This document shows, piece by piece, positions 7,886 to 59,200 of a DNA stretch of 64,000 nt (the first letter of the stretch is position 1; every line of letters starts with the position of its first letter). Under the pieces are notes generated by a model. The model saw only the letters and a program-made list of their open reading frames with translations, did no database searches and was not told the DNA's origin. The DNA lies in the IMG/VR virus record IMGVR_UViG_3300048998_000119, positions 13,214 through 77,213 of that record. One strand, 5' to 3'. The DNA is from a virus. Lineage: Duplodnaviria; Heunggongvirae; Uroviricota; Caudoviricetes. The translations under genes and the position numbers were made by a program.

Positions 7886-7888
7886 AAC

Positions 7889-8407: not shown

Positions 8408-8409
8408 AG

Positions 8410-8871
8410 TTATTCTTCTTTCTGAAATTTAGACAAGCTCTCGCCGGTCATTATCGAACGTTCAAGAACTTCACGCGACTCCTGAAGAGCGCGCATTTCG
8501 CGAACCTTAATCGCTGCGGCCTGAGCCTTGGCGGGGTCTTGCTCAATCAGCACCAACAACATCGTCAAACACTGATCGAGATTGTTCATGCGATGACGCA
8601 TAATGCGGATTTCGGCTTCGTGCAACATCTTTTCTTTTTCGAGCCTAGACTCGTATTCCTTACGCTGTGACTCGAGCAGTTCTTCAACCTTAGTCACACG
8701 ACCCATGAGGTCATCGACGAGTTTGTCTTGCGCGCTGCCTTGTAGTTCTTTCATCTTGGGTCGTTGTTTAATCCAGGCCACGAGTGCACCGCCGACCAGA
8801 AGGTTCAGCAAGCCCACCATGCCTGTAGTCCAAGACCACCCAGTTACGGACACAACATCATGGGGCTGCAT
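8410..8871 (-). CDS. membrane-anchored coiled-coil protein (153 aa)
   Basis: TM segment MVGLLNLLVGGALVAWI then heptad-rich region. Confidence 0.45.
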   Translation of the reverse strand: MQPHDVVSVTGWSWTTGMVGLLNLLVGGALVAWIKQRPKMKELQGSAQDKLVDDLMGRVTKVEELLESQRKEYESRLEKEKMLHEAEIRIMRHRMNNLDQCLTMLLVLIEQDPAKAQAAAIKVREMRALQESREVLERSIMTGESLSKFQKEE

Positions 8872-34467: not shown

Positions 34468-36495
34468 TCAGTGAATTTCCCTCCAGTTCTTTCCGGTCTT
34501 GCCGCTGCCGTCCATGAAGTCGATTCCGAAAATCTTCGGACCTTCCTGGAAAGCCTTGACGCCCAACTCAGCCGCTCTGGCCGCGTGCTCATCCGGCACG
34601 GAGCAGTCGCCTTCGTCGTGCATAAAGATATGTGGCTTGAACGGAATACCTTCTTCGCGCATCCAGCGCATCCACAGCATAATAGCCGCAGAGCAAGTGG
34701 CCTTTTCAAACGCTTGCAGTAGATACACAAGTAGCTTGTGCGTCGAATCAACATACACAGGTACTCCACCGATTCCGGTGATGTAGCCACCCTTCTTGAT
34801 CGAACCGCTAAATCCAATCTTCTTGGTCTCTGCGAACTCACGATTGAGCGCCTTCTCCAGCTTGACTAGATTAGGAACTTTCTTCGTGAAACCCTTCTTA
34901 AGTTGACCGCCGAGCGTGGCGTCCGGTGAACCAAAGCAGTAGAGCCAGACTTTAGCGCCACCTGCTCCGAACAAGAACGCGTAATACACACGTTTAGATC
35001 GAGCACGTCTTTGCTTCCACATAACTTTTTCAGCCGCTTTGCGACCAGACGTGTAGTACTGCTCATAACTAATCCCCTTTCTGTCGAGGAATCGTTTGAG
35101 CGCACCTTTGGCTTTGGTGCTCTTGGCGAGGAACGCACCCCAGTCCACACCCATTTCTTTGAGCACTGCGTCCAGCGCCTTAGCGTTGTACATGTGGATG
35201 TCGCCCTTGGTGATGACGTCGATGTACTCAGCACTCTTCAGATAGAAGGCAAGTCCTCGTCCTTGGTTGCCCGCAGAGTCGCAACCCACCAGCGTCCATC
35301 CAGGCTCTGAAATGAAAAGGGATCGCATTTCTGGTCCCCATTTTGATTCCATTGCGGGGACGTTAACGATAATGCTGTGGCGCGCACGTAGACTCGGGGT
35401 GCCGATAGTGACGCAGTCACCGTGGAGTCGTCCTTCGGCGTCTGTGTTTTCAATCCACCCTTTGAGGATGGATAGTCGTGAAGATGCAACAGAGAACTCA
35501 CGATAGAGCTTACCGTCGCCGCCAAGAAACTCCAGACTCTCTTCGGTAATCTTAGGGCTTGTTTGGACCTTACGTTTTGTGGCTTCGTCGAATTTGCTGT
35601 TGTACTCAAGAGGTATCCATCCGTTTCTGAACAGAAATGTCTTCACATCATCTGTCGAACCAAGCTCAAGCGGCACCACCTTCATACGGCAGTACTCGCC
35701 GACGACCATGACTTCCTCGCCCGGATAACCGGACCAGGGATCCACATCGAAATAGGTGGCGATGTGTGAGTGATACGCACCTTCTTTGGTCCACCTAGTG
35801 GATTTGACTTCGACCTCTTTGCCCTGAGTGTTGGGCACCTTGTCGAGCGCCACCGTCTTCATTCCCAACTTGGGTTCCAACAGTGCTCTGTTCTTCTCGA
35901 CAAGTTCTTCTAGTTCAATCGCCAGCTTCGAACCGGTTTCGACGTCGAAGGGCCAACCTCCCATGTGAGCCATACCGACCCATTCGGACGCGGCGTGTTC
36001 GCACAGAAGATAATCAGCCAACTGAGGGGCTCGCTTGGACTTCGACTTGTACTCATCCAAGAGCATCTTGTACATGACGATGTTACCTTTGACGTCGCTC
36101 AAACAACGTGTCCTCATTTCTTGTGAGAACTGGCTCCAATCGTTATGCTCTTGCTTGTCGTAACCTGTGTGCTTGCCCCATTCGTCTTGGCTGTGTTTGA
36201 AATTGCCGAATCTGTTATAGTCCAACGCGCGAGACATAATGAGAGTATCTTGGAGTAACGCCTCTTCGGGAGGCACCCAGCCAGTCAACTTCTTGAATAA
36301 GGGCAGATCGTGTTCGATTATGTTCTGCCCGATGATGTGGGTGGCGGTTTCCAAACGTTCCTGCCACCCAAGATCACCTTCAAGATATTCCCATACCTCG
36401 CCCGTCTCGACATCTTCAATCACGACGATCCAGAGCCGAGTTGCCTCAAGCGCCAGACCGTCTGATTCAGAGTCGAATACGAGTTTTACAGCCAT
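34468..36495 (-). CDS. DNA polymerase, family A (T7 gp5-like) with 3'-5' exonuclease domain
   Basis: exo I FDSESDGL, motif B RRARSKRVYYAFLFGAG, motif C HDEGD. Confidence 0.8.
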   Translation of the reverse strand: MAVKLVFDSESDGLALEATRLWIVVIEDVETGEVWEYLEGDLGWQERLETATHIIGQNIIEHDLPLFKKLTGWVPPEEALLQDTLIMSRALDYNRFGNFKHSQDEWGKHTGYDKQEHNDWSQFSQEMRTRCLSDVKGNIVMYKMLLDEYKSKSKRAPQLADYLLCEHAASEWVGMAHMGGWPFDVETGSKLAIELEELVEKNRALLEPKLGMKTVALDKVPNTQGKEVEVKSTRWTKEGAYHSHIATYFDVDPWSGYPGEEVMVVGEYCRMKVVPLELGSTDDVKTFLFRNGWIPLEYNSKFDEATKRKVQTSPKITEESLEFLGGDGKLYREFSVASSRLSILKGWIENTDAEGRLHGDCVTIGTPSLRARHSIIVNVPAMESKWGPEMRSLFISEPGWTLVGCDSAGNQGRGLAFYLKSAEYIDVITKGDIHMYNAKALDAVLKEMGVDWGAFLAKSTKAKGALKRFLDRKGISYEQYYTSGRKAAEKVMWKQRRARSKRVYYAFLFGAGGAKVWLYCFGSPDATLGGQLKKGFTKKVPNLVKLEKALNREFAETKKIGFSGSIKKGGYITGIGGVPVYVDSTHKLLVYLLQAFEKATCSAAIMLWMRWMREEGIPFKPHIFMHDEGDCSVPDEHAARAAELGVKAFQEGPKIFGIDFMDGSGKTGKNWREIH

Positions 36496-42859: not shown

Positions 42860-43474
42860 TCATCGAGCTTTTTCATTATATAGTTTCCTTCTAACCGCTA
42901 GTAATTGACGTTTTAATTCTATGAATGCAGTAGGCACGTCCTTTTTACTGTTTAAATTTAGATCGGTACAAATCCTACGTTCAACATAGGTATCGGCAAG
43001 AAATAGACGTTCTAAAGAGGAACGATATTCTGTACGGGCAGCGGTGTCCCTCCCTCTCTCGTTACGTCTCGCACAACCACGTCGAGCACGTCGTAATCTG
43101 ACAATGTCAGCCGTGTACCGTCCGTAGCAGCTAATACACAAAGTTGTGTAGTTATATCGTGGTACTGTTGCCCACGTGCAATGACAGTGATCGCAACGAG
43201 GTCTAGGCGGAGTTTCATGGACGGGTGGTTTATAGTCTACACGCTTGGCTCGACATTTACGCACCACTTCTTTTCTCACTTCGGGTCCGCAATCTCGACA
43301 ATAAAATACATGCGAAGGCCCTTCAGCAATTGATATATTGCAACGCTTGCATTTACGAGCTAATCGTCTCTTTTCACTCCTCTCATTTTGAAAACATGTT
43401 CTACAACGACTTGTGCAAGTCTTATAGAACATGGTGACATCTTCTGTGCGACAGAAGACACAGCTGTACTTCAC
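42860..43474 (-). CDS. Cys-rich multi-zinc-ribbon protein (204 aa)
   Basis: >20 Cys in CxxC pairs. Confidence 0.45.
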   Translation of the reverse strand: MKYSCVFCRTEDVTMFYKTCTSRCRTCFQNERSEKRRLARKCKRCNISIAEGPSHVFYCRDCGPEVRKEVVRKCRAKRVDYKPPVHETPPRPRCDHCHCTWATVPRYNYTTLCISCYGRYTADIVRLRRARRGCARRNERGRDTAARTEYRSSLERLFLADTYVERRICTDLNLNSKKDVPTAFIELKRQLLAVRRKLYNEKAR

Positions 43475-44256
43475 TTAATATTGACGAGCGACCCGCCGGT
43501 GCCCTGGACGAACGTGCAGTTCTTGTTTCCGCAGACGGATTTCAGCGTGTCCAACGTGCGAAGCTGAACGAACTGATCTGCATTCAGACCCAGACCATTC
43601 TGGTAGGCTCGATCCGCTTCGGCGCGCTTGGCTTCTGCGTTTTTGCGCTGCTCTTCAGCCAACACAGTCTTCTGCATCGTCAGCACACGCTGTTCCTGAG
43701 AAGCCGTGGCGATGCGCTGATCCTTCACAGAATCAGGCGGATTTGCCCGACCAATAGTGAACCGAACGAGTCGCACAGGGAACTTGTTCCGGGCGAAGTA
43801 CTGTTCCAGCCGTTCCGAAACTTCGGCATCGATCGAGGCTGCGGCGGTAGTGCTGATGGCCGTCTCGTTCAGACCATGCTTCTTGACGGCGTCGCGGATG
43901 TACGACAGCAGTTCGGTGCTGATGTTGTTGTCGTACCAGTTCGAGCCATAACGCTTGACGAGCGCGACCGAGTCGGTGACCTGCGTGACGACAGAAGCGT
44001 CGAAGTCCAGAGGTACACCGTCGCTGGTCATCAGATCGTTTAGCTCAAGCTTGTGCTGCTCCGGCTGCATGTTGACGGTGATCGCACTAGTCGACCAAGC
44101 GACTAGTTCGGTGCCCTTGACGGGAGTGTCGAACACACCGCCCGAGCCGAAGAACCAGGGCTTTGCGTTGAGAACTTTTTCCTCGTTGGGCTCAGTACTC
44201 ACGTAGGAGCAAGCCGAAGTGGCGAACAGAAGCGAGAGAAGAAACATATTTTTCAT
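43471..44256 (-). CDS. SPFH (band-7/HflKC-like) lipoprotein
   Basis: lipobox LLFATSAC; RLVRFTIGRANPPDSV and Ala/Glu/Gln-rich AEEQRKNAEAKRAEADRA tail typical of SPFH C-termini. Confidence 0.5.
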   Translation of the reverse strand: MKNMFLLSLLFATSACSYVSTEPNEEKVLNAKPWFFGSGGVFDTPVKGTELVAWSTSAITVNMQPEQHKLELNDLMTSDGVPLDFDASVVTQVTDSVALVKRYGSNWYDNNISTELLSYIRDAVKKHGLNETAISTTAAASIDAEVSERLEQYFARNKFPVRLVRFTIGRANPPDSVKDQRIATASQEQRVLTMQKTVLAEEQRKNAEAKRAEADRAYQNGLGLNADQFVQLRTLDTLKSVCGNKNCTFVQGTGGSLVNIK

Positions 44257-44927: not shown

Positions 44928-45371
44928 TTAAATCTTATTCGCACGACGCATCCGTGCCACGCCTCCCAACGCCAGGAAGCCGACGGTCATTGCGCCCCAG
45001 GTGGCCGTCTCCGGGACCGGGGTGATGAGACCCTGCCCGCCGCCGCCGTGCCCAACTCCGCCTCCACCTGGGAAGCCACCGCCTGAGCCTGCACCTCCGC
45101 CGCCCACAAAACCGCCGCCACCGGAGCCGAAACCACCGTAGGAGAACTCGCCGCCAACGCTATCGGGCAGCGGGCAAAGAGCCAGATTACTCTCGATCTT
45201 GATGTCGCGAACTGGAGGCTCGTCGAAGACTTCCTTATGAGCCGTTTGGTTGATGTGGTGTTTGACCACAGCGATGCCGTGATTTATTTTGGCGTGATAG
45301 TGGTGAGTCGCGATTGGAGCCACCACAACGCAAGATAGTAGAACACCTTTGCTGAGCAAGTATTTAAGCAT
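44928..45371 (-). CDS. secreted Gly-rich protein with PEP-CTERM-like C-terminal sorting signal
   Basis: signal peptide; GGFGSGGGGFVGGGGAGSGGGFPGGGGVGHGGGG; C-terminus PVPETATWGAMTVGFLALGGVARMRRANKI. Confidence 0.45.
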   Translation of the reverse strand: MLKYLLSKGVLLSCVVVAPIATHHYHAKINHGIAVVKHHINQTAHKEVFDEPPVRDIKIESNLALCPLPDSVGGEFSYGGFGSGGGGFVGGGGAGSGGGFPGGGGVGHGGGGQGLITPVPETATWGAMTVGFLALGGVARMRRANKI

Positions 45372-45373
45372 GT

Positions 45374-45661
45374 CTAATCCTCTGAAAAGAGTTCCTGCAG
45401 GGTCCGTTCTGGATCCCAGCCAACTTTACGCTTTACTTCTTTCCCGTTGTGCATCAGCACAAGAGTGGGTACACCTCGCACGTCAAAGCGATGTGCCATC
45501 AGTGGTTGCTCGTCGACGTCTGACACCAACAACTCGATGTCATTTCGCTTACGAGCTTCCTCCAACGCGGGTTTCGCGGGCAACGCCCAAGACGCCCAGA
45601 ACAGCAACAACTTGTCGCCGGTGTCCAGGAGATCTTCGTTTGCTTGAGTGAGTTCGATCAT
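45374..45661 (-). CDS. thioredoxin-fold protein lacking the CxxC active site
   Basis: FWASWALPAKP aligns to Trx FWAEWCGPCK; RGVPTLVLMHNGKEVKRKVG aligns to Trx [20 protein letters not shown]. Confidence 0.55.
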   Translation of the reverse strand: MIELTQANEDLLDTGDKLLLFWASWALPAKPALEEARKRNDIELLVSDVDEQPLMAHRFDVRGVPTLVLMHNGKEVKRKVGWDPERTLQELFSED

Positions 45662-46152: not shown

Positions 46153-46517
46153 CGACGATTGGCGCTGGACACAACCAGCTTCCCATCGTGTTTCGTCCGA
46201 ATCTTTTCCATAATGTCCGGCTGCTCGATGCGGCGCAGTTCCCGTTCGAACAACTGTTCGGGCGAGGCGCCTGTGACAGCGAAGTAAGCCGCCAGAGTGG
46301 TCAGCACACCACCGATCTCTTGACTGGTGACGCCGGGAGGTTTGGCGTAGACCTGCTCGATAAGCGCGAGCGCCTGTTCTTTTGTGACGCCTTCAACTTG
46401 ACCGAGTTCGATGCTTTCTTCCAAGAAGCGTAGCACACGCTCCTCGACGTCCATACAACGATTGCCGAAGCAATTGCGAATCCACTTGATTAAGCGGAGA
46501 GGTTGAAAATCAAGCAA
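46149..46517 (-). CDS. MazG-like nucleotide pyrophosphohydrolase
   Basis: RFLEESIELGQ ... EIGGVLTTLAAYFAVTG. Confidence 0.45.
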   Translation of the reverse strand: MLDFQPLRLIKWIRNCFGNRCMDVEERVLRFLEESIELGQVEGVTKEQALALIEQVYAKPPGVTSQEIGGVLTTLAAYFAVTGASPEQLFERELRRIEQPDIMEKIRTKHDGKLVVSSANRR

Positions 46518-46728
46518 GACGATACACTCCCACCCAAGCCACCACTGCGTAATACAGTAGTGTAGACCAAGCGATGAGCACCGCGCCGTTCCAGAGAAGT
46601 AATCCGAAGACTATCCCCAACAACGTGGTGCAAACTTCCGAAATTGCAACTGTCCCCGCCGCCATAATGATTGCGCCGAAGAGCAACCCGGCGAACGACA
46701 GTACAGTCAATAGAATTGCGATGAACAT
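46510..46728 (-). CDS. small polytopic membrane protein (~73 aa, trimmed)
   Basis: MFIAILLTVLSFAGLLFGAIIMAAG... Confidence 0.35.
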   Translation of the reverse strand: MFIAILLTVLSFAGLLFGAIIMAAGTVAISEVCTTLLGIVFGLLLWNGAVLIAWSTLLYYAVVAWVGVYRLA

Positions 46729-46729
46729 T

Positions 46730-46999
46730 TTATTTACTCTTTTCCGCAAGGAGTCTGTCCGTGTAGCCGTGGTTGTAGGCGTGACAGATGCTGATGACGA
46801 CGAAGGCGAGCTCACGGTCTGGGACTTGGTGAGACACAAAGTAGGCAAGTGTGTACTTGCTTTGGTAGTCCCGTGTGTACGGGATGCATACCTTCTCCAC
46901 CGCTTGTTGTTCGAGTTCCAGGGTGCGGACTTCGACGTGACCATTGGATTCTTTCGGCAGGAGGATTGAAGATGCGGCGAACAGCAGAATACCGATCAT
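46730..46999 (-). CDS. small secreted protein (89 aa)
   Basis: N-terminal signal-like MIGILLFAASSILL. Confidence 0.35.
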   Translation of the reverse strand: MIGILLFAASSILLPKESNGHVEVRTLELEQQAVEKVCIPYTRDYQSKYTLAYFVSHQVPDRELAFVVISICHAYNHGYTDRLLAEKSK

Positions 47000-47168
47000 T
47001 CGGTGTCTTCCTTTATGCAGTGAGAAATCATCATGTTCTCGTTTCGAGCGTGGAGCTCGATGAACGAACGGCGGGCGACTTCACAGATCTTGCGACTCGA
47101 GAAGTCTTGGATCTGCTGGCTGCAGACGTTGGGTTGCATGCAGATCATGACGAGAAATCCAAACATGG

Positions 47169-47552
47169 CTAATCCTTTTTAAAATGTTTCTGAATACGGT
47201 CGCAGAGTTCAAGTGTCATTCTGTCGTCCTGAGTCGTCACAATCTCGGGTCGACTTTTCTTCAGCTGACGGCTGAGCCATTTATCTTCGGCGATTGATGT
47301 CTCTAATGTTCGATACTGATCAAGATAAACTGAACTCACTTTGCTGTCGCGAGTCAGTTGTATTCTGACGCCGGAGTCATGCAAGAGCCACGAATCTGTT
47401 CGTTGCCAGCCGGGACTGAAAAGAAGCTTGCCGATAAGTTCAACACTCTGACGACGGCGCTGTAAGTAGCCCCCATTTATCAAGAAAGGAGAGCCAAAAC
47501 AGATGGTGAGGCCGGTGGCTACTACCACCAGGAAGAATATAAAGTCAAACAT
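47169..47552 (-). CDS. membrane protein (127 aa)
   Basis: N-terminal TM helix. Confidence 0.4.
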   Translation of the reverse strand: MFDFIFFLVVVATGLTICFGSPFLINGGYLQRRRQSVELIGKLLFSPGWQRTDSWLLHDSGVRIQLTRDSKVSSVYLDQYRTLETSIAEDKWLSRQLKKSRPEIVTTQDDRMTLELCDRIQKHFKKD

Positions 47553-47937
47553 CGGTCATCTTACTCCGCAAGAGTTTTGCGGCGTCGCCCGCCTTGTCGG
47601 GACGCACAATCAAGTGCTTGACGCGACGATATAGCCACTTCTTGTCGCCTTTGGTTAGCTCGATTGCGTAGCCGGGTATATCTACGCCTCTGATCTTTTC
47701 GTAGTCGTAGTCGAGAGCAATCTCGACACCGGTTGCGGTATGCTTCAAGTAGCGGCCTTCCATAAACCAACCATTTATAGCCGCAATCTCACCGATAACC
47801 GCTAACGCGGGATCCTTGCGTTCACCGTAGGAAGCGAAGGGTCGCACGCCGTCGACCATCCACGACAGCAAGACGACCATGAGCACCGCTCCACCGATAC
47901 CGAGTGCGGAAGCGAGAAGAAATTGAATTACAATCAT
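47545..47937 (-). CDS. membrane protein (130 aa)
   Basis: N-terminal TM helix. Confidence 0.4.
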   Translation of the reverse strand: MIVIQFLLASALGIGGAVLMVVLLSWMVDGVRPFASYGERKDPALAVIGEIAAINGWFMEGRYLKHTATGVEIALDYDYEKIRGVDIPGYAIELTKGDKKWLYRRVKHLIVRPDKAGDAAKLLRSKMTDV

Positions 47938-48164
47938 TACAGTACCTCACAAGTTTCGTTGAAGAGCGCTTCGGCGAGATCCAGCTTAGTGCCATGCTTG
48001 ATGAGGTGATCCTCCAGTATAAGCTTTATGTCCAGAATCTGTCGGATGTCTCGGTTTGCTCTGAAAGTGACTTTCTCTCGGTTGAGCCAAACGAAGAAGA
48101 CCAGCGGATGATCGGTGGTGTGAATGCCCGCGAACAACCACTCTTGAATGATACGTTCCGTCAT
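47937..48164 (-). CDS. hypothetical protein (75 aa)
   Basis: ORF track. Confidence 0.35.
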   Translation of the reverse strand: MTERIIQEWLFAGIHTTDHPLVFFVWLNREKVTFRANRDIRQILDIKLILEDHLIKHGTKLDLAEALFNETCEVL

Positions 48165-48742
48165 ATGTTCAACTCCTTGAGCTGCAGGAGACGCTTTACG
48201 ATTTGATCTTCCGTGAAACGATCGTACAGACCGTCCAGAGAAGGAGTCTCACGTCCGTCGCCCGGTTGAAAGGCGCGGGTGCTCGCCCAGGTCGGCAGCT
48301 TGTCGGCGAATTGCGTCAACAGAAGAACGGTGTCCGTGTCGACGACGATGCTGTGGATCTCCGAGGCGTGCTGATGGTACGACTCACCTTCCTTGTGCAG
48401 CATGCTGGACTCGATCGACAGCAGTGTTTCGCGCTTCCAGACGAAACCGGAGCCGCCGTTGAGCGGTGTCTCGTAGTCGAATTCTTGGAAACGCGTGTGG
48501 CGAGGATCACCCCAGCCACTTTTGTATTTGTTGTTGCGAACTTCTCCGGCCAATACCGTGGTGGAAAAATCATAACGATGATCGTGCGGCACGACGATTT
48601 CGGCGTCGGTCTTCAAGTTGTCGAAGAAGTAAGCTTTGATCGTCAGCGTATCCGAACGATGCAGACAGATGTAGTCGAGTCCTTTCGAGTGGAAGTTGCG
48701 GAAGCTGTTGGCGGCGATGGTTTCGACGTCGTCGTATCTCAT
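48161..48742 (-). CDS. putative cupin-fold / 2OG-Fe(II)-oxygenase-like protein
   Basis: VPHDHRYDF (HxD) and HQHASEIHSIV. Confidence 0.35.
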   Translation of the reverse strand: MRYDDVETIAANSFRNFHSKGLDYICLHRSDTLTIKAYFFDNLKTDAEIVVPHDHRYDFSTTVLAGEVRNNKYKSGWGDPRHTRFQEFDYETPLNGGSGFVWKRETLLSIESSMLHKEGESYHQHASEIHSIVVDTDTVLLLTQFADKLPTWASTRAFQPGDGRETPSLDGLYDRFTEDQIVKRLLQLKELNI

Positions 48743-49227
48743 TTGGCGTATCCTTTATAGTGATTGAGAAAGTTTCCGTGAAAACAATTTTCGCTGAACC
48801 CTGACGGAACGCCGTGGTCGAGAAAAAAGTAAATACGTTCGGCCGCACCCTTGGCGGTGTTGTCGAAATGGGACCACATACCGCCGAACATCCACGCGAA
48901 CTCAGATGAAATCGCATCGCTGCCTTCGGAAAAGACTGGACAGAAGTTACGTTCGCAGTAAGCACTCCAGTCTATAGTGCTGCCGGGAAAATCACTGTCG
49001 ACCGCCAGAAAACCAGCGCTGGGACCGTGACCAACTGCGCAGGCGACGGCACCACAGTTGTGCACACCACCGTTCTCGCGAGCGTATTTATTTCTGATCT
49101 CAAACTCTCGTCCCCAGAGACCATCCTCGACCACGCTGAAGTAAGAACTCATATTGAAGCTGTCGTAGTTCTCGGGAAGCTCAAAGAGATAGTCGGCGAG
49201 CGTCTTGAGGTTGCCGCGATTAACCAT
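48739..49227 (-). CDS. tandem paralog 1 of unrecognised family (CGAVACAVGHGPSAGF motif)
   Basis: start trimmed to MVNRGNLKTLADYL; shares three blocks with paralogs 2 and 3. Confidence 0.6.
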   Translation of the reverse strand: MVNRGNLKTLADYLFELPENYDSFNMSSYFSVVEDGLWGREFEIRNKYARENGGVHNCGAVACAVGHGPSAGFLAVDSDFPGSTIDWSAYCERNFCPVFSEGSDAISSEFAWMFGGMWSHFDNTAKGAAERIYFFLDHGVPSGFSENCFHGNFLNHYKGYAK

Positions 49228-49675
49228 TGTAGATCTCCACGAATGCACGATAGGAATAACCCTTGAAGACTTCCGGCACACCGTGCTCGAGATAGTAGTT
49301 GATGCGCTTGGCGGCACCATGAGGTGTGTTGTCGCAGAAAGACCAGAATGAACTGAACATCCACTCGAACTCGCGCGTGTTGTTGCCATCTTCGTCGCGC
49401 ACATCGCAGAAGAGACGATGAGTGTACACATCCCAGTGGACTTCCACGTCGTTGAGTTCATGTTCCTGAAACAAAAAACCCGCCGAAGGACCATGACCCA
49501 CAGCACAGGCCGCAGTTCCACAACGCGAGACTCCACCGTTGTTCAGTGCGTAGTCTCGTTCGTCGGCGGGAGTGTGGGCGTAGAAGAAACCCGCCATGTC
49601 GAATTCGGCGTAGTCTTCCGGCAGCGTGAGCAGGTAGTCGGCGAGCTTCTTGAGGTTGTCGCGGCGGTTCATGCG
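49220..49675 (-). CDS. tandem paralog 2 of unrecognised family
   Basis: start trimmed to MNRRDNLKKLADYL; CGTAACAVGHGPSAGF; HGAAKRINYYLEHGVP. Confidence 0.6.
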   Translation of the reverse strand, partial: RMNRRDNLKKLADYLLTLPEDYAEFDMAGFFYAHTPADERDYALNNGGVSRCGTAACAVGHGPSAGFLFQEHELNDVEVHWDVYTHRLFCDVRDEDGNNTREFEWMFSSFWSFCDNTPHGAAKRINYYLEHGVPEVFKGYSYRAFVEIYNG

Positions 49676-50151
49676 ATGTACTCCTGATAGATGGGGACAT
49701 AATAACGAAAGCTTTTGCAAACGTCGAAACTCTCCGGCACGCCATTTCTCAGATAGTAGTAGATGCGTGCGGCGGCTCCGTGAGGTGTGTTGTCGTAAGG
49801 CGCCCACCTACCGCCAAACATCCAGCTGAAAGCATTGGCAGCTTCTGGGCTGAAGCGACGACCGACGATGAAGTTGGCGTAGGTATATTCCGGCCACATC
49901 ACTCCACCGCCTTCTGAAATGAACTCTTCGGTAAAGAGAATACCGGCGGTAGGTCCGTGACCAACCGCGCAAGCCACGGCTCCGCACGCGCCCACACCGC
50001 CGTTGTGTAGAGCATACTCACGTTCCACTGAGGTGTGAACACCCTCCATGAAAGATATCATGTTGAAATGTTCGTAGTCCAGCGGAAGCGCCGACAGATA
50101 ATCGGCGAGCTTCTTGAGATTTTCACGCTTGTCCATCTTGGAGCCTTTCAT
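49669..50151 (-). CDS. tandem paralog 3 of unrecognised family
   Basis: MDKRENLKKLADYL; CGAVACAVGHGPTAGI; HGAAARIYYYLRNGVP. Confidence 0.6.
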   Translation of the reverse strand: MKGSKMDKRENLKKLADYLSALPLDYEHFNMISFMEGVHTSVEREYALHNGGVGACGAVACAVGHGPTAGILFTEEFISEGGGVMWPEYTYANFIVGRRFSPEAANAFSWMFGGRWAPYDNTPHGAAARIYYYLRNGVPESFDVCKSFRYYVPIYQEYIA

Positions 50152-50395
50152 AGTTGTCGTAGATGTACTCAGCCATTTGCATGAGATTCAGCGCGGACTG
50201 CTTGGTGAGGAAGCGAATGAAACAAAACGGTTCGGCGTTAATCTCGATTGTGTCGGCGTTCTCTTCCGTGATCGGTTCGTCGCCTTTGACGGCGTGGAAT
50301 GTGATGCAGGGAAACTTATCTTCATCCCAGTTGGGCACCATAGCGAAACGACCGGTGCCGATTTCTATTCCAGGAATAACCATCTGAATTTCCAA
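50123..50395 (-). CDS. hypothetical protein (90 aa)
   Basis: ORF track; preceded by stem-loop element. Confidence 0.4.
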   Translation of the reverse strand: MEIQMVIPGIEIGTGRFAMVPNWDEDKFPCITFHAVKGDEPITEENADTIEINAEPFCFIRFLTKQSALNLMQMAEYIYDNYERLQDGQA

Positions 50396-50428
50396 TTTTT
50401 AGGAGGAAGCTTTTTACGGCTTCCTCCA
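50388..50428 (-). promoter_or_regulatory. stem-loop + A-run + RBS module, copy B
   Basis: minus: GGAGGAAGC-cgtaaaaa-GCTTCCTCC TAAAAATTGGAAATTCAG ATG. Confidence 0.4.
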
Positions 50429-50587
50429 GGATTAATTAGGCGTACGCGAGGACAAGCAACCGAAGCTGATGTTCGGTGTAGTCCAGGATGCGACGATGAA
50501 AGTTTTCGGCGGCGGCGCGATAACCACGACGCTGCATTCCATCGACGATCTGCTGATAAGCTTGTTCGAGTTCCATACCAAATCCTT

Positions 50588-50695
50588 TTATCCAGAGCAT
50601 CGGCGATTGGCCTTTTCGCAGGCGTGGAAAAACAGAATGACCACCGGAGTGGCCACAGCAGAAAGCATACCGTAGTAGCCGATCACGGTGAACAT
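50588..50695 (-). CDS. small hydrophobic peptide (35-45 aa)
   Basis: own translation MFTVIGYYGMLSAVATPVVILFFHACEKANRRCSG; in frame with the ATG of conserved element 3. Confidence 0.3.
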   Translation of the reverse strand: MFTVIGYYGMLSAVATPVVILFFHACEKANRRCSG

Positions 50696-50720
50696 TATAT
50701 TTCTCCTGAGAGATGATCCT

Positions 50721-50752
50721 CTCATATAAGATACCTTATTTTCCGCGTTTTC
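50721..50752 (-). promoter_or_regulatory. conserved 32-nt element copy 3
   Basis: GAAAACGCGGAAAATAAGGTATCTTATATGAGAG; first intergenic region after the lysis cassette. Confidence 0.6.
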
Positions 50753-50863
50753 TTTTGACGAAAATTTGCAACTTAGGGTTGACGATCAGACGACGTGTGG
50801 CGCGTCTCAGCAAGTGAGAAGACAGTTCATCCGCTTCCAGATGGAGTGCGTCCTCAAGCCGGG

Positions 50864-51172
50864 TCACTTCATCGCGTCCGCGTCTCGTTGCTCACAGCGA
50901 GTTATGATGTCTATGACGTCCGTGGTTCGACCGTTTGACTGGTCAACCTTGTTCGCCTCCGACACACCAAAGTTCACCCAGTTCTTGAGTGAGTCCAGCG
51001 GGTCGGTGACGTCGACGGGAGGCGGTGTGTGGGCCACACCTTTGTGCCAACTGTCAGGGATTAGTTTTGAGCACGCACTCGGGTGACCCACTATAACCGG
51101 CGAGTGCGCACAGCCCGCTGCGGCCAGCAGTGTTGACGCCGTGAGCGTCCTTAGCAGATTGAACTTGAACAC
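50864..51172 (-). CDS. o-spanin (Rz1-like outer-membrane lipoprotein)
   Basis: lipobox LLAAAGC, Pro-rich TPPPVDV, starts inside the Rz gene in another frame. Confidence 0.5.
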   Translation of the reverse strand: MFKFNLLRTLTASTLLAAAGCAHSPVIVGHPSACSKLIPDSWHKGVAHTPPPVDVTDPLDSLKNWVNFGVSEANKVDQSNGRTTDVIDIITRCEQRDADAMK

Positions 51173-51380
51173 GGGTGGTCTCCACTACTCGATCGCCTTC
51201 AGCGTCGGTTGAAATTCTATTCTGAGTCGTCTCGACGGCGTCTTCGCCGGACAGTATAGCGCCCGTGGCGATGTTGCCGTCCAGATGAGCTTGATCGCTC
51301 TTTGAGCCGCCGCATGTCGCCATCAGAAATATAGCGATGACGGCTATGACCACCATGGCGATTGTGATGTATTTACTCAA
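51054..51380 (-). CDS. i-spanin (Rz-like)
   Basis: N-terminal TM IAMVVIAVIAIFLMA, periplasmic remainder; directly downstream of endolysin. Confidence 0.5.
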   Translation of the reverse strand: MSKYITIAMVVIAVIAIFLMATCGGSKSDQAHLDGNIATGAILSGEDAVETTQNRISTDAEGDRVVETTRVQVQSAKDAHGVNTAGRSGLCALAGYSGSPECVLKTNP

Positions 51381-52069
51381 CGAATTACCTCCAAAGCTTT
51401 CTTGCGCTTGGCTTCTACTTCGGCCAGACCGATGAGGCCACCGTTGATCGAGCGTCGAGCGCCCTTGAGATCAGCCATATCCACATAGTCGAACGTGTGC
51501 TTGCGCAACATGAAGTCACAGGCGGCAACCAGCGACTTGGCCGGATCCGCGACATCGTCTGGATCGAAACCCAGATTCAGTTTGAGAACGAGATACTCAG
51601 CTGCTCCGGTGTGTTGGAGCATTCCTCGACCACGGTTTTCCCAGCCGTGGCCCTGATTTCCCATGCGATTTCCGTATACAAGATTTGCGAGGGCAACATC
51701 CTCCCTATCTGGATCAGTCGGATCCCAAGAATAGGGTGCCGCAGAAGCCAGAGTAGGGAATCTAGTTGGCCAAATTTGTGTGAGACGTTTTGCACTGTAG
51801 TGGAGGTTCTCTTCAAAGCGAGTCCAACCGCCGGACTCATTACTCGTTTCACCGAGGAATTCCGCCAACCGCATAGGGGTGTCGACCTTATACTTGGGGA
51901 ACGAGATTACAGCCTGCGCGCCGATTGCTCGGAGTATCGCGTCGGGTTGACGTCCGGCGACGTAACCGAACAGCATGGCGTAAGTTATCTTACCGGCCAC
52001 ACCGTCGATTGCACCGCAGGGGAATTTTGCGTCAGTCAGATTTTGTTGGGTTTTCGTCCAATTTATCAT
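51377..52069 (-). CDS. endolysin, glycoside hydrolase family 19-like
   Basis: LAEFLGETSNESGG (GH19 catalytic Glu region) and NLVYGNRMGNQGHGWENRGRGMLQHTG. Confidence 0.7.
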   Translation of the reverse strand: MINWTKTQQNLTDAKFPCGAIDGVAGKITYAMLFGYVAGRQPDAILRAIGAQAVISFPKYKVDTPMRLAEFLGETSNESGGWTRFEENLHYSAKRLTQIWPTRFPTLASAAPYSWDPTDPDREDVALANLVYGNRMGNQGHGWENRGRGMLQHTGAAEYLVLKLNLGFDPDDVADPAKSLVAACDFMLRKHTFDYVDMADLKGARRSINGGLIGLAEVEAKRKKALEVIR

Positions 52070-52370
52070 TTTCGGCCTTTGCTTCTCCGGTGACCGGTGG
52101 AACCTTTTCGGCGGTGGCTTTAGCTGCAGCCGCGAGGTCTCGATCAGCCTGATTGGTCTTAAACAATGCCTGAGCCGCCATACCCATAATAGTCATGAGA
52201 CCAGTGACCGTAGAATCAACAATTCTGATCTTTGATTGAGTGACCAGATCATTGAGATTACCGTCGGGGAAGTAACGAACGAGAAGCATGAGTAGGAGGA
52301 TGGAAAGGAGGAGGGTCATAAACGCTATGAACCCTTCATGCTCTTTCCAGGAACTAGAGGGTATTTTCAT
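52032..52370 (-). CDS. putative holin (112 aa)
   Basis: two hydrophobic helices, charged C-terminus, overlaps endolysin start. Confidence 0.45.
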   Translation of the reverse strand: MKIPSSSWKEHEGFIAFMTLLLSILLLMLLVRYFPDGNLNDLVTQSKIRIVDSTVTGLMTIMGMAAQALFKTNQADRDLAAAAKATAEKVPPVTGEAKAENDKLDENPTKSD

Positions 52371-52432: not shown

Positions 52433-52891
52433 TCAACGGGATGGATGATGCCGAGTCGGCCAAACCAAACGACCCGAAGCGACAGGCGTCCAGCCATCTT
52501 TTTCAAGCACTCGCTGGAACACACTCTGGTTATGAAGCGTACTGCTCGTCACCGCGATGTGGAAACCCTTCTTCTCAACCCACTCTCTGAAGTCTCTGTG
52601 GAAGTCACGTAACTCGTGAACAGCCTTGACGCCAGTAATGTTTGAGTGATAATAGATTTGACTGACCGCTCGAATCGGTGAGTGATGATTGCCGTGGCCT
52701 TCTATAGCCATCATCCAACCATGCTCACCGATCTTGAAGTACCGTCTATCCGCGATTGCTTGATTCAGGAAAGCTCTAAAATGAACTCGATCGTGTGGAA
52801 AGAATTCATCGTTGTAGCGTGCGTAGAGATCTTCGGACAGATCACAAATCCATCCGAAGTCTGATCTCTTAGCTTGTCTGTAAGTACCCAT
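52433..52891 (-). CDS. hypothetical protein (152 aa)
   Basis: ORF track. Confidence 0.4.
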   Translation of the reverse strand: MGTYRQAKRSDFGWICDLSEDLYARYNDEFFPHDRVHFRAFLNQAIADRRYFKIGEHGWMMAIEGHGNHHSPIRAVSQIYYHSNITGVKAVHELRDFHRDFREWVEKKGFHIAVTSSTLHNQSVFQRVLEKDGWTPVASGRLVWPTRHHPSR

Positions 52892-55508
52892 CTTGTGTCT
52901 GCGCCAAATAGGGTGCCAGCATCTTCATAGAGGGGCTGTCCACCGGAGCCGAATAGTTGTTGTTGTCTGGATCCAGATGATAGATGTAGCTGAGCGGGAA
53001 GCCCGAACCCCATGTCGTCCAACCAAACAACACATCTTTATGGTCAAGCATATACTGATACATACTTGCCATGATAGGTCCACAGATGGTCTGAGCGGGA
53101 TCGCCTCCCGCCGTCTCACCGATGAAACCTCGTTTGTTGTGGGCGGTCAACCAATCCACGAACTGGCTGATTCTGCCGGAGCCTGTTCCGGACACACAGA
53201 AAGCTGAAGTACCGGAACCGTCGCTGTCGTTATAGCTGTGGCAGTGGTAAACTTCATTGTTGGCCGGATCATAGCTGGTGATGTTGGCGTCGCCGTTGCC
53301 GTTCTTGATGAACGAACCCGCCGAAGCGTACTCAGACATTTCACGATGGATTAGACCGGTGAAGTTAGTCTGAGCGCGAATGGCGTTCATCACTGCTTGA
53401 TTTATGTCTCGGGCCCAACCGGCGCCCAAGGAGTTGTTCACATCCTTCGGCTCGTTCATGAGATCAAAGTGAACACGAGGGTTGCCTTGAAACACCAGCG
53501 CGAGTTTCACCCAGACATCGATTAGATGCATGGTATTCAGTTCCGCGCCGTTGTAACGAACAGTGACGCCTCGACCATAATACTTATTGTCTGTTGAGTT
53601 GAAATACGGCTCGATGTTGTACTCCATGAAGTTATGCATATCCAGCAGAATATATCCGCCGAGGACGTTAGTCCAATAATTGATAACTTCAATGATTCGC
53701 CGCATATCCTGGTCATTGCTACCGGTGAACGGTACGTCGGGTCCGTAATAGAGTGGTCCCATAAGAACAGGTTGAATACGTTCCCAACGAATTGGAAGAC
53801 GTGCATAGCGTACGCCCTTGGACCAGTAGTAGTCCATTCGCTCATGCTGATAGCCCACACCGTTTTCCGGCTTGGACGGGTAGTAATAACGACCGCCGTT
53901 GTACGCGTACTTCTTGCCTGTGGTTGGATCGAAGATTGCGCCGAACTCACCGCCTGAGATATTCAAACCGTAAAGATTCTTGGGACAAGGTGGTTTAATC
54001 AAACCCGACAAGTAGACACAACTGTCCGGTATCACAAGTGGATCGAGATCCGGATCCGTGAGCCGCATAGTGTGCTTGCCCGTACCCGCGTGAGGAACCG
54101 TAAAGGTCACAGCACCCTGTGCCAAGGCTGTGTTCGTCGTCGTCAGCCTCGTGCCGTTTAAGGACATAAAGCCGCTCGCCGCCAAAGCTGCCTGCAGCGC
54201 CGAGTCGAACCCTGGGGGTGAGTTGACCGACGCCAGCGTCACGCTGCTGGGATTGTCGTTGGCCGGACCTTGTAAGGTGTAGGTGATGGTCGTACCGTCC
54301 GAGGTGGCCCGCAGTTCCCAGAACCGAGGAGGAAGATCGGCGAAGATACGCGTCTGCGAACCTCCGTTCATGGCGACCGGCGTGTATTGCCTCCACCAGT
54401 TGTTACGATAGGTCGTGCCGTCTGAGGGTGGCGGATTGGCGGAAGACTTCGTGACTAGATCATAGATAAACTTTTGTCCCGTCGGAACATAGATTACCCA
54501 GTCACCTTTCTTGTAGATGGTGGTGTTGTTCCAGTTGCCCTGATACGACACTGTGGCATCTTCAAAGCCGACAGCCACATCGCCCTCGATTGAAACGTTG
54601 GTAATACAATCCCACTGCATCGGGAGAGGTTCCGCCACACCGTCTTGTTTGACGGTCAACAGTATGCTCATTGGTTTGGTGGGATCGTAGCCCTTGCCCC
54701 ACGTCACATAACCACCGTTGAACCACTGTCCGGCCGTCGCTTCAGTCCATTGTGGAATTTCCACAGTGCAACCGGCCTCAAGTGCGGCTTTACGCAACTG
54801 TGTTCGGAAGTCCGGATCCAACTGCTTCTGACCGACGTTCGCTTCGTAGATTTTACAGCGATGTCCCTCAATCAGATTTGTCGTGTAGTAAGTAACTCTG
54901 AAGGAATCTCCTTCCTTCAGCTGCGCCGACACCGCTCCGTGATCCACACTCTCACAGTAGATATTCATGGCGGGAACGCCGGTGGGTCTCCGCGATGTGT
55001 CACGTACGTAAATGTAGCTACCAGAACCTGGAGCGATGTCGCCGTTGCCATAACCCTTCAGCAAGATCTGAAGATCACGTCCCACAGTTTTATCCGGAAA
55101 AGTGGTGTTCTGATCGTCCGAACGGTTACGTCTCACCGTGTTGGTGAACGTCATCACGTCGAAGCCTTTATAACTCGGCGTCGTCCTGATGGCGAACGAC
55201 ATAGTGCCGGACACAGCTGGCGTAGTGGTGCTGGACAGACGCTGGCTTGTACAACCGTGCTTGGCACACTCCGCCGCCACAATACCGTCCCAGTCTTGAA
55301 CGTAGGCGCCGTTGCCGCCGATATTGCCGGGTCCAGTAAACCAGACCACAATCATTTCATCGCCGTTGCCGGATGGATTGAAACAAGCCAACGTCCAAGT
55401 AATGTCGTCTCCTTCGCTTATATAACGTTCATTCAAATGGAGTTTCTGCCACGCAGGTTTAAGTGCGTAAAACGGAAACTCCATCGACGTATTAAACGGA
55501 GTAATCAT
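52869..55508 (-). CDS. tail fibre/spike with C-terminal GH5-like glycosidase domain
   Basis: 879 aa; C-terminal HFDLMNEPKD and GFIGETAGG paralleling the GH5 motifs of the 1590..2825 gene. Confidence 0.65.
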   Translation of the reverse strand: MITPFNTSMEFPFYALKPAWQKLHLNERYISEGDDITWTLACFNPSGNGDEMIVVWFTGPGNIGGNGAYVQDWDGIVAAECAKHGCTSQRLSSTTTPAVSGTMSFAIRTTPSYKGFDVMTFTNTVRRNRSDDQNTTFPDKTVGRDLQILLKGYGNGDIAPGSGSYIYVRDTSRRPTGVPAMNIYCESVDHGAVSAQLKEGDSFRVTYYTTNLIEGHRCKIYEANVGQKQLDPDFRTQLRKAALEAGCTVEIPQWTEATAGQWFNGGYVTWGKGYDPTKPMSILLTVKQDGVAEPLPMQWDCITNVSIEGDVAVGFEDATVSYQGNWNNTTIYKKGDWVIYVPTGQKFIYDLVTKSSANPPPSDGTTYRNNWWRQYTPVAMNGGSQTRIFADLPPRFWELRATSDGTTITYTLQGPANDNPSSVTLASVNSPPGFDSALQAALAASGFMSLNGTRLTTTNTALAQGAVTFTVPHAGTGKHTMRLTDPDLDPLVIPDSCVYLSGLIKPPCPKNLYGLNISGGEFGAIFDPTTGKKYAYNGGRYYYPSKPENGVGYQHERMDYYWSKGVRYARLPIRWERIQPVLMGPLYYGPDVPFTGSNDQDMRRIIEVINYWTNVLGGYILLDMHNFMEYNIEPYFNSTDNKYYGRGVTVRYNGAELNTMHLIDVWVKLALVFQGNPRVHFDLMNEPKDVNNSLGAGWARDINQAVMNAIRAQTNFTGLIHREMSEYASAGSFIKNGNGDANITSYDPANNEVYHCHSYNDSDGSGTSAFCVSGTGSGRISQFVDWLTAHNKRGFIGETAGGDPAQTICGPIMASMYQYMLDHKDVLFGWTTWGSGFPLSYIYHLDPDNNNYSAPVDSPSMKMLAPYLAQTQDGYLQTS

Positions 55509-56218: not shown

Positions 56219-59200
56219 TTAACCATAATAGGCTACTCCAAATAGTGTACGCGAAGCAATACCCACACCGCTGTTCCCCATTACGTCGAGGGTGACAGTG
56301 TAAGTGCCCGCAGCATTCATGTATAGTGGTGCGCTGAGTGCAATACTGTCGGAGGTCTTCTGACCACCTGTGGCGAACACGGCGACGCCGTTGATCGTGA
56401 GTCGAGCATTCCAACTCATATCACCACTTGGAAAGGCCAACTTGGCGCTGGCTTGAGCGAAGATGGTGCCCGGACCGTCCAGCACAACGATGACCGTCAT
56501 CTGCGTGGTCCAGGTTGAACTGAACTGCATGGTGTTGGTCGCACTCTGAATAGACGGAATGGAGACTGTGCCGCCTGTACCCACTTTAATTTTACCCACC
56601 ACGACTTCGTTCATATAAACGACGCCCTGTGAGATCTGGAAAGGTGTGATAGGCGAGCCACCGTTTGGATCGATCACCCGAAACGTATTGGCGGCGATGA
56701 TGTATTCGCTATAACCACCGGTTGAGGTGTTGAACGTACCCGTGATGTGACCTTGATCGTTCAATGTATTCAAAGAACGAAGAGTCGCACTTCCGTCTGG
56801 GGCGTAGACGATGTCATTGATCTGGTCGATCTGATAAGTCGCTTTGTCTGTATCCGAACGAAGTGTCTTGATCGAGCTGACCAGCGGTACACCGTTCTCT
56901 ACGTAAGCTGTATCGGCGGACAGATAGAAGGCTTTACCCGTACCGCCTGGACCGACACCCGAAGCACCCAACAGCGCAAGATCCTGAGCGTAACTCACGT
57001 TGCCGTCTGAGAACTGCGTCTGCAAGTGATCGATGACCGTGGCGATTGGCGTGCCGTTGATGTACTTGATGTCGTTGATGATCTTCTCGTTGTCGGCGTT
57101 CTTGATGATGGACAGCGCGAGATTGAACCCGTTTTGTGTCATCTGAGTCATCGCCGCTTGAGCTTCCAGATCACCCACCATCGTCCCGGCCGGAGCACCG
57201 CGTGTCGCGCCCGGTTCAGCTTGAACCTTGGAGAACAGTGTGATGCTGACCAAGTCACTGATGGTTGGATCGTTCGCTTCGCTGACAGACAACTGATAGA
57301 CACGTGTCTCTTCATCGAACGGAGTAACCACGATGCTCTGCTGATTGCTGTCGAAGGTGTTTGCGCCGGAGACCATATGCCAGTGATAGACAGGATTGAC
57401 ATAAGCATAAGCCAAAGCCTGCAGATCAATCTCGGTGGGAGTGTAGACTGCGTCGCCCGGACGATGAATGAACGTCAGTGCGTTCGAAACAATCGTCACA
57501 TGTCGTGTCCAGTTATGATTCAGGAACACCGCGTTGTAAGGATCGGTCAAAGTCATCTGAGACAACTTGCCGCCCGAACTAACGGCTCGCACACCGAAGA
57601 AAGCCGAAGCCGCATTGATGGCAGGAAGGTCATAGAAAGGCAGAGGAGAACGACCGATTTCCGAGTAGACCGGATTGCCGTTACTGTCCGTCGCGTCCAC
57701 GCCGGGTCGGTACACGTAGTACACATAACCGGCGAGCTCCGCGAGGTAGACAGGCGTCGTCACCAACTGACCCGAACTGTTCGTCCTGTCGCCGACCGGA
57801 GGCAGATAGTTCAACGCATACGGTTGAGGAATAAACGACGAGTACAGATTGGGCGCCGACGAATAAACGTCATCCTTGTTTGCCCAAGCCAACTGAGACA
57901 CATCGAAACGAGTGGTGTTCAGTGTAACCTTGGTGCCGTCAGAAGAAACCTTGGTCTCGTCCACACGCATGTATAGAGCCACATCGATGCCCAAGAAGAC
58001 ATCGGCGACCGCGAATTGAATGAAGTCACCCGGCTCAGGAAGCTTGTCCTGTACCAGAATTGTGAACTCATACTGTGCGGCAGAACGACTTGTGCGCACC
58101 AACTCTTCGCACTTGGCGAGAGCATGGAAAGGATCGGTGATGCCGTCAGCAAAGACGTCCGTCTCAAGCTTCAGACCGTTGTCTTCCGCTAACATCTGAT
58201 AGTAAACGCCGTTGGTTTCATTGACGTCGATGTAGGCGGAGTAAGCCGTCAGACGAGTATTCCAAAGAATTGTTGACGCCGAGTCAATCTTGGCCGCGAC
58301 ACCCTTGTAGTCGTTGCTGCCGCCTCCGGTGTTAGTGCCGGTGATGACGATCTTATACACGCCCGGATTCAGTGAAATGCTCGCCGTCTTGAGATTCTTC
58401 ACGTCGGACACGCTACCGTTGTAGACTGAAGCGCCGGTGGCGTTGTTGGTGATCGCGATTGCGCAACTGTCGTCGCCAGCATAAGTCAGCGTATAGTTGC
58501 CTGAACTGTTGTTGTCGACATACAGCATATATTGCAGAGAAGTCGAGTTCCCGGTGCCCTTCCAGACATTGTATTGGTTCAACAGTCTGCCGGAAGCTGT
58601 GGTGTCGTCCCATGAACCCACACCCGAAGGATAGGTCTGCGCGCCGATGCCTCGCTTGTACGAGTTGTTGAACTTAGGAGGCCAGCTTACACTGTCTTCT
58701 GTGAAGTTCTCGTGTTCGTTGTGGAAACGAACCGTGCCGAAGTTGAACCTGTCGGAGGCGCTCGGCCATTGAACAGAGAACTCTTCTCCGAAAGCGAAGT
58801 TGTCGTCATTGACCAACATGTCGATTTTGATGTCGGCGTTGGTCAGCGGATACTGAATCGACAACTTGTACTTACCGTTCGACCAGACGAGACGCGTGTC
58901 GCCCATGGTTGCCAAGATCGACTCGATGTTGTCTCGAATCGGTTTGCTGGTGTCCACAAGCATGTTGCACTCATAGAGAGGGATGTCGCGCTTGCTGATC
59001 GTGTTGGTGCCGTCGGTTGGCTGCCAGATCTTACCGCCCACGTTCATATTGGTCTGCACAATGAAAGTGCGGATCGCCTCAGCGTGTTCAAAAGAAGCCA
59101 AATCAATCTCACTGAGATCGTAGCCACCGCCGTCAAGCGGATCCAGCATATAGTCCAGCAAACAGTAAGGACCACCGTTGTTGTAGCGGTAGTTCGTCGG

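Follow-up and report, generated by a model that had tools for sequence, protein, structure and literature searches.

A phage-encoded glycine-rich protein ending in a divergent, sub-threshold PEP-CTERM-like tail of the PEPxxWA class

We consider here a small gene of a phage of the class Caudoviricetes whose product ends in a tail that, judged from its sequence, falls in the PEPxxWA class of PEP-CTERM sorting signals, by descent or through shared constraint, as a divergent member scoring below the curated thresholds. The gene lies in a stretch of 64,000 nucleotides (positions 13,214 to 77,213 of the IMG/VR record IMGVR_UViG_3300048998_000119), called the window below, where its open reading frame (ORF) takes up positions 44928 to 45371 on the minus strand and encodes 147 residues followed by a stop codon; both these coordinates and the sequence quoted in an earlier reading of the same DNA, hereafter the original prediction, are exact. 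It is a real, strain-specific gene in a variable block of small genes of a lytic-type phage. The tail reads VPET (residues 119–122), AT, W125, GAMTVGFLALGGVA (residues 126–139) and RMRRANKI (residues 140–147), then the stop, and its parts map to the window as follows.

45006–45017, minus strand: VPET, residues 119–122, aligning to the VPEP recognition motif of PEP-CTERM, with Thr and not Pro at the third motif position
44997–44999, minus strand: W125, the invariant Trp of the PEPxxWA subclass, followed by Gly and not Ala
44955–44996, minus strand: GAMTVGFLALGGVA, residues 126–139, a hydrophobic helix of 14 residues that keeps the conserved M, G-F and G positions of the family
44931–44954, minus strand: RMRRANKI, residues 140–147, a basic cluster with four basic residues at the extreme C-terminus, predicted to be cytoplasmic

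Taken part by part, this arrangement follows the PEPxxWA-CTERM family (NCBIfam model NF035944) in the V-P-E start, the Trp placed four residues after the Glu, the M..GF...G pattern of the helix, the basic cluster and the position at the very end of the protein. It departs from the family in having Thr for the second Pro, Gly for the Ala after the Trp, a polar Thr within the helix and an interrupted basic cluster (RMRRANK), and in having a phage rather than a bacterium as its source. The original prediction had spoken of a PEP motif; the VPE at the start of the tail stands, but the motif as a whole is PET rather than PEP. The wider PEP-CTERM/EpsH system (TIGR02595/PF07589) has been described as one of proteins with a signal peptide, no internal transmembrane (TM) segment, no homology outside the tail, a hydrophobic stretch of 14 residues and a basic region of about five residues near the C-terminus (Haft et al., 2006; PMC1569441). 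Our protein shares with it the three-part C-terminal tail, including the ~14-residue hydrophobic stretch right after the motif (residues 126–139; mean Kyte-Doolittle hydropathy of 1.3–1.5 in 15-residue windows over residues 124–141) and the basic cluster that comes after the helix. It also shares the N-terminal signal-like segment, with no hydrophobic segment between that and the tail in the hydropathy profile, the lack of homology outside the tail and the low-complexity body. It differs in that its body is rich in Gly and not in Ser, Thr and Asn, and in that the window holds a single copy, whereas bacterial genomes typically hold several.

The assignment of the C-terminus to PEP-CTERM architecture, as made in the original prediction, is borne out by its nearest relatives in sequence space, which are genuine tails of the PEPxxWA subclass. 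An exhaustive phmmer search of 1.84 billion representative sequences, for which the final 36 residues were the query, gave eight non-self matches at E ≤ 1e-3; seven of these carry genuine PEP-CTERM tails, and the eighth was set aside as a low-complexity false positive. Six of the seven pass NF035944 at 38–69 bits, and the seventh (P0008), a fragment of 36 residues, scores 29.1 bits with that model and passes TIGR02595 at 23.0 bits. P0005 contains the identical nine-residue stretch PVPETATWG, Thr included; its identity to our tail over 32 residues is 62%, and NF035944 (cutoff 35) gives it 40.1 bits. The alignment of our tail to the natural ones is free of gaps and keeps all the invariant columns P, E, W, G and G, and the Gly in place of Ala after the Trp is also found in genuine members (P0005, P0008 and L006). 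As to the Thr, PET is a natural variant, present in L006 (a viral contig; 40.5 bits), L008, P0004, L094 and L100, and PEA and PEL variants likewise exist among genuine tails. Sphingomonas sp. Leaf339 has PET together with canonical PEP paralogs, and at one locus of a metagenome-assembled genome a PET gene lies 2.5 kb from a PEP gene. Among the metagenomic proteins of this comparison, P0003, P0004, P0006, P0007 and P0009 each contain two or three complete internal PEP-CTERM tails; they probably arose when gene callers fused tandem paralogs, or else by duplication of the tail.

The behavior of engineered variants shows which residues carry this resemblance. All five NCBIfam matches reported for the native protein are to PEP-CTERM families, with the C-terminal end of the model aligned to the C-terminus of the protein. 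Changing PE to AA loses every one of them, so the helix and the basic cluster alone are insufficient to produce the signal. The match to NF035944 is lost when the Trp is changed to Ala, and changing the Arg and Lys residues to Ser lowers the scores by ~5 bits. The single change T122P, in turn, brings TIGR02595 to 18.7 bits, above its cutoff of 16, and NF035944 to 27.9 bits, and the addition of G126A to T122P gives 31.8 bits. For specificity only, and not for membership, we also used a local hidden Markov model (HMM) built from 82 bacterial tails; on this model the ORF scores 47 bits, a value inflated because the members had been pre-selected for their likeness to it, versus 11 bits for the runner-up among the 8,256 six-frame ORFs of this phage and of 70 further phage loci. 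None of 2,000 composition-preserving shuffles of the whole tail exceeded 11.8 bits, and shuffles limited to the pre-helix residues or to the helix cost about 27 bits each.

Several results weigh against placing the protein in this class, the inflation of the local HMM score being one of them. TIGR02595, whose search the original prediction had proposed as a check, goes unreported on the native protein even at E ≤ 10 (cutoff 16 bits), and Pfam, PF07589 included, gives no match at E ≤ 10 either. The best NCBIfam model, NF035944, gives 16.9 bits for the full protein (E = 0.0045) and 20.1 bits for the tail alone (E = 0.00045), both short of its cutoff of 35; with every curated cutoff missed, the protein falls outside formal membership of the family. 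The near-invariant Pro-Glu-Pro is represented by P120-E121-T122, and Thr at the position of the second Pro is rare, occurring in two of the 82 bacterial tails with a search pattern that permitted it. No second tail of this kind occurs in the six-frame ORFs of the 64-kb window. The protein, moreover, is an orphan, so that conservation lends it no support. The closest relatives of the phage by RNA polymerase (L133–L148, 50–71% identical in that protein) have the polymerase and the genes downstream of it in common with the window and nothing upstream, so they offer no conservation test; none has a PEP-CTERM-like tail, and the two observations together make our gene strain-specific cargo in a hypervariable region. 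The guanine-plus-cytosine (GC) content of these relatives, 33–39%, is no pointer to the high-GC Sphingomonadales, home of most of the similar tails. Finally, the proteins of the window have at most three predicted TM segments each, from which it follows that the window encodes no exosortase.

The remainder of the protein, ahead of the tail, is made up of the following segments.

45291–45371, minus strand: residues 1–27, MLKYLLSKGVLLSCVVVAPIATHHYHA, a putative N-terminal signal peptide or signal anchor, with K3 and K8 and then a hydrophobic stretch at residues 9–22 by hydropathy
45147–45290, minus strand: residues 28–75, a predicted periplasmic segment in which no homologs were found
45027–45146, minus strand: residues 76–115, a Gly-rich low-complexity run (25 Gly in 40 residues) of irregular GGGG(F/V/A)-like units

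The first of these had been read as a cleavable signal peptide; the hydrophobic segment behind K3 and K8 is there, but no canonical AXA cleavage site was seen on reading the N-terminal segment. The third had been called a 40-residue run of GGGG(F/V/A) repeats, and here the richness in Gly holds and the regularity does not: Tandem Repeats Finder reports no tandem repeat in the DNA of the Gly region, and the run is a compositional bias without a regular repeat. The middle segment, together with the end of the N-terminal one, is rich in His (H23, 24, 26, 31, 38, 39 and 45). Alignment-free structure prediction is uninformative, with a mean predicted local distance difference test score (pLDDT) of 39.6 and helices at both ends only.

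With both sides considered, we lean, with modest confidence, toward the product being a small envelope-directed protein that is exported by Sec, anchored by its helix, processed by a host exosortase and placed at the surface or in the exopolysaccharide layer. In such a scenario, the protein would leave the cytoplasm through Sec by means of its N-terminal signal or anchor, and the C-terminal helix would then hold it in the inner membrane with the Arg cluster in the cytoplasm and VPE(T) at the periplasmic face, a short His-rich segment and then a flexible Gly-rich spacer preceding the sorting tail. The exosortase, if the host has one, might recognise the motif, cut off the anchor and hand the protein over to the cell surface or the exopolysaccharide layer. 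The benefit to the phage would likely lie in an altered surface of the infected cell, for example through receptor masking, superinfection exclusion or matrix remodelling. The reality of the gene, its architecture, the kinship of the tail with genuine PEP-CTERM tails and the recurrence of such tails in other phages are shown; export, topology, processing by exosortase, early expression and the benefit to the phage are all steps that we infer. The idea has a partial precedent in phage lipoproteins such as T5 Llp and the Cor proteins, in which a host-type sorting signal, acting via the Lol/Lgt pathway, alters the surface of the infected cell. Our protein resembles these in carrying a host-type sorting signal on a phage protein, and a neighbour of its gene itself encodes a lipobox-bearing Band_7 lipoprotein; it differs in that its signal is of the exosortase and not the lipoprotein type.

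The alternative that survives best, which we nevertheless judge unlikely, is that the tail is a plain membrane anchor or a decayed signal. The protein would then be a small bitopic or hairpin protein of the inner membrane, and the VPE..W would have arisen by chance or be the relic of a captured end of a host gene. The failure at all the curated thresholds, the loss of the second Pro and the polar Thr in the helix would all be expected of such a protein, an orphan offers no sign of purifying selection, and the presumed early block around the gene abounds in further small membrane proteins that have simple anchors. Against this stands the PVPETATWG stretch, which lies outside the helix and is identical in a protein that passes the cutoff. 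Every invariant column of the family is kept, the order of the motif and the pattern within the helix are each worth ~27 bits over segment-preserving shuffles, and natural PET tails pass cutoffs and coexist with PEP paralogs. The codon usage of the gene is moreover the phage's own, which argues against a fresh import in the course of decay. The original prediction had kept "just a membrane anchor" as its fallback should the family model fail and the host lack an exosortase; the family model does fail, and the mutant scans, the nearest neighbours and the cutoff-passing PET variants speak against that fallback.

A second alternative keeps the exosortase and inverts the outcome: the PET variant might bind the host enzyme, be poorly processed and so, early in infection, jam the sorting of host PEP-CTERM proteins of the surface or of flocs. 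Such a decoy would suit a small protein that has no recognisable functional domain and is a sub-threshold variant at the motif presumed to be recognised or cut, with its gene in what is presumed to be the early region of this lytic-type phage. PET tails are, however, ordinary bacterial paralogs that pass the cutoff, so PET itself need not be non-cleavable, and other phage-borne PEP-CTERM proteins have the canonical PEP; we consider this reading quite improbable. Still less probable is that the protein takes another route to the envelope, as a lipoprotein through a lipobox at L-L-S-C (residues 11–14, with the Cys at position 14) or as a substrate of GlyGly-CTERM/rhombosortase. The poly-Gly upstream of the C-terminal helix and Arg cluster at first sight suggests the latter, and LPXTG/sortase and GlyGly-CTERM/rhombosortase share the grammar of C-terminal motif, helix and basic cluster (PMC1569441) while differing in their motifs. 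The models for GlyGly-CTERM, MYXO-CTERM and other sorting signals, however, give no match to the protein at E ≤ 10, at which only PEP-CTERM models are reported. GlyGly-CTERM demands a Gly-Gly abutting the helix, whereas the Gly run here stops 12 residues short of it. As to the lipobox, LLSC14 fails what we take to be the rule of PROSITE PS51257, having K8 inside the six residues that must be uncharged and its Cys before position 15 (allowed 15–35).

That the ORF is no gene at all, and arose by chance in GC-rich sequence whose Gly codons mirror Pro codons, is hardly credible. The lack of homologs, the low-complexity core and a mirror Pro-rich ORF on the opposite strand would fit a chance ORF; the features of the gene itself argue otherwise.

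44928–45371, minus strand: complete ORF, an orphan phage gene, with its stop codon at 44928–44930
45378–45382, minus strand: Shine-Dalgarno sequence GAGGA, 6 nt upstream of the ATG, within the 3' end of the thioredoxin-like gene

Among the six frames, the annotated one scores best by codon log-likelihood, and does so in each of the N-terminal, the Gly-rich and the tail sub-regions taken singly; its score of 0.257 per codon compares with a median of 0.225 for the other genes, and its Gly codons (GGC/GGT) follow the same preference as the phage itself. The strong Shine-Dalgarno sequence stands at optimal spacing and, lying inside the upstream gene, suggests translational coupling to the thioredoxin-like gene, the ATG being 2 nt past the stop of the latter. 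The ORF runs in the same direction as all neighbouring genes, was also called independently by JGI and Logan, and has a tail significantly similar to a real protein family. Its orphan status rests on two kinds of search: megablast and tblastn, run with the region and with the protein, gave no match in 50,697 phage records, and in a word-indexed search of 5.8 billion proteins the protein matched only itself. A weak tblastn match of residues 82–147 in L003 was dropped, being out of frame within a gene of 327 residues. A scan for promoters and terminators gave no excess over the count expected from shuffled sequence.

Irrespective of how our gene is read, PEPxxWA tails on phage genomes are not confined to it. 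The original prediction held that a phage protein of this kind would be new, which overstates the case: a survey of IMG/VR with one narrow peptide pattern found at least 47 viral contigs with true C-terminal PEPxxWA tails, several of them flanked by phage genes on both sides and passing the curated NCBIfam cutoffs. The proteins have ~200–260 residues and signal peptides and often occur as tandem pairs, and their genes sit among phage genes for replication, packaging or lysis, as in the following cases.

L006, 2172–2831 and 3059–3679: two PEPxxWA genes between the major head protein and portal/large terminase (TerL) genes
L016, 5392–6108: PEPxxWA gene between the DNA polymerase gene and those of a PurZ-like synthetase and a helicase
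L008, 5458–6114: PEPxxWA gene (VPETATW) between a phage-family gene and an endolysin gene
L005, 4549–5316 and 5332–6117: two PEPxxWA genes near an endolysin gene
L014, 4480–6117: PEPxxWA-tailed member of the recurrent set, inside a phage module
L039: PEPxxWA gene near helicase, exonuclease and Sak4-like genes

A PEP-like ORF in L024 was not counted, as it overlaps a better-supported gene on the opposite strand. Our protein shares with these the phage origin and the subclass of the tail, L006 and L008 having VPETATW as well. They differ from it in a canonical signal peptide and a larger body that is not Gly-rich and weakly matches the FxDxF and NF038129 PEP-CTERM families, whereas ours has 147 residues, is Gly-rich and sub-threshold, and has no similarity to them outside the tail; it is an atypical, weak example among the phage carriers of PEPxxWA tails. 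A comparison of three viral PEP-CTERM proteins and a consensus tail with the 50,697 deposited phage records gave no match, although the short hydrophobic query may have been masked. In the literature searched in full text we found no description of phage-encoded exosortase substrates; the one mention that came up, in a preprint, is of a PEP-CTERM domain borne by a protein of a virus-like element of Dehalococcoides. The carriage of PEPxxWA tails by phages thus recurs in sequence data and is essentially undescribed. One could go further and suppose that encoding an exosortase substrate of their own is routine among phages whose Gram-negative hosts have an exosortase, our protein being either a substrate delivered to the surface or a pseudo-substrate that jams the enzyme, and in both cases remodelling the cell surface, for example so that superinfection is blocked or the matrix is loosened to aid release; we regard this generalization as doubtful and offer it only tentatively. 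A separate observation concerns L016: beside its phage DNA polymerase and PEP-CTERM genes lies that of a protein of 350 residues (7397–8449) with a match to the PHROG of the 2-aminoadenine (PurZ-type) adenylosuccinate synthetase, a hint that the genome of this phage contains diaminopurine (Z).

The interest of these tails lies in the pathway that they point to. Exosortase/PEP-CTERM sorting is widespread in environmental Gram-negative bacteria and its biochemistry is barely characterised; to our knowledge, neither the acceptor nor the precise site of cleavage has yet been established. The sorting is needed for floc formation by Zoogloea (Gao et al., 2018, cited in PMC12642866). If the wider supposition above, of phages that encode their own exosortase substrates, is true, it would amount to an undescribed viral use of a host protein-sorting pathway that is poorly understood biochemically. 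Small phage-borne substrates could serve as compact natural probes of the exosortase pathway, could reveal phages that install surface or matrix proteins through it or interfere with them, and could hint at the host range of uncultured phages. The practical value of the gene examined here is limited, as it is a sub-threshold orphan, and the canonical PEPxxWA-tailed genes inside other phage genomes are the more useful lead.

Turning to the phage itself, the statement of the original prediction that the gene is phage-encoded is confirmed by the portal, terminase, T7-like DNA polymerase and T7-like RNA polymerase in the same window. The window proteins, all on the minus strand, comprise the portal, the large terminase, ribonucleotide reductase, a primase/helicase, the T7-like DNA polymerase and a single-subunit T7-like RNA polymerase, and the phage is of lytic type; no tRNA was found in the window. 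The DNA derives from a metagenome contig of run SRR27584636. The nearest cultured phages infect Ruegeria, an alphaproteobacterium. They are the siphoviruses DSS3_VP1/PM1 (Naomviridae), with identities of 40% for the portal, 51% for TerL, 33% for the DNA polymerase and 32% for the RNA polymerase, the core proteins thus being only 32–51% identical, and of 28% for the J-like tail protein. The single large terminase of the window (445 residues) matches two coding sequences of DSS3_VP1, each labelled "putative terminase large subunit" (L132, 4390–6410), with a small ORF between them; the terminase gene of DSS3_VP1 is split or interrupted.

As a guide to the host, the similar bacterial tails are overwhelmingly from Alphaproteobacteria (Sphingomonas, Sphingobium, Sphingopyxis, Sphingomicrobium, Erythrobacter-type genera, Phenylobacterium and Bradyrhizobium), with a few from Betaproteobacteria. 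GC content is contradictory in this respect: it is 52% for the window, 33–39% for the relatives by RNA polymerase and 66% for the contigs that share the Band_7 gene, and 33–39% as compared to 52% is an unusually wide spread within one phage lineage. The original prediction took the host to be exosortase-positive, which is reasonable; given this mismatch, an exosortase-positive alphaproteobacterium is only a reasonable guess for the host. No exosortase was found beside the sampled bacterial PEPxxWA genes, all ten polytopic neighbours tested being ordinary transporters or unassigned, which is as expected since such genes are scattered.

Our gene is one of a block of small genes that separates the tail genes from the RNA polymerase gene, and it lies ~4.3 kb upstream of the latter; by analogy with T7-like phages this block is probably the early region. 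Immediately upstream lies the gene of a thioredoxin-fold protein (45374–45661, minus strand; 95 residues, Pfam Thioredoxin at 41 bits), which has WASWALPAK in place of the WCGPC active site and has lost both cysteines. T7 uses host thioredoxin, and by analogy this redox-dead protein could be a processivity factor supplied by the phage for its T7-like DNA polymerase (gene at 34468–36495). The neighbouring Band_7/SPFH lipoprotein (43471–44256, minus strand; lipobox LFATSAC) is 78% identical to the product of a gene at 5962–6744 of L002. The IMG/VR contigs sharing it have 66% GC and are otherwise unrelated to this phage of 52% GC; the gene looks like a mobile moron traded between very different phages. 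L002–L004 had been considered as syntenic relatives with a different lipoprotein in the slot and were dropped, having the Band_7 gene alone in common with the window. A gene for a protein of 164 residues in the neighbourhood has no relatives in IMG/VR.

Further upstream of our gene, the block from 46510 to 52370 (minus strand) encodes many small membrane-directed proteins, among them one with three TM segments (46510–46944, minus strand) and others with N-terminal hydrophobic anchors (47169–47552, 47545–47937, 51054–51380 and 52032–52370, minus strand). Bacteria with PEP-CTERM proteins all have an outer membrane and exopolysaccharide genes (Haft et al., 2006; PMC1569441). Adjoining the J-like tail protein gene (56219–60004) is that of a protein of 879 residues (52869–55508, minus strand) with a glycanase domain of the GH5 cellulase family at residues 563–834, probably a tail-borne polysaccharide depolymerase, and such a domain in a tail-region protein fits a host coated with polysaccharide.

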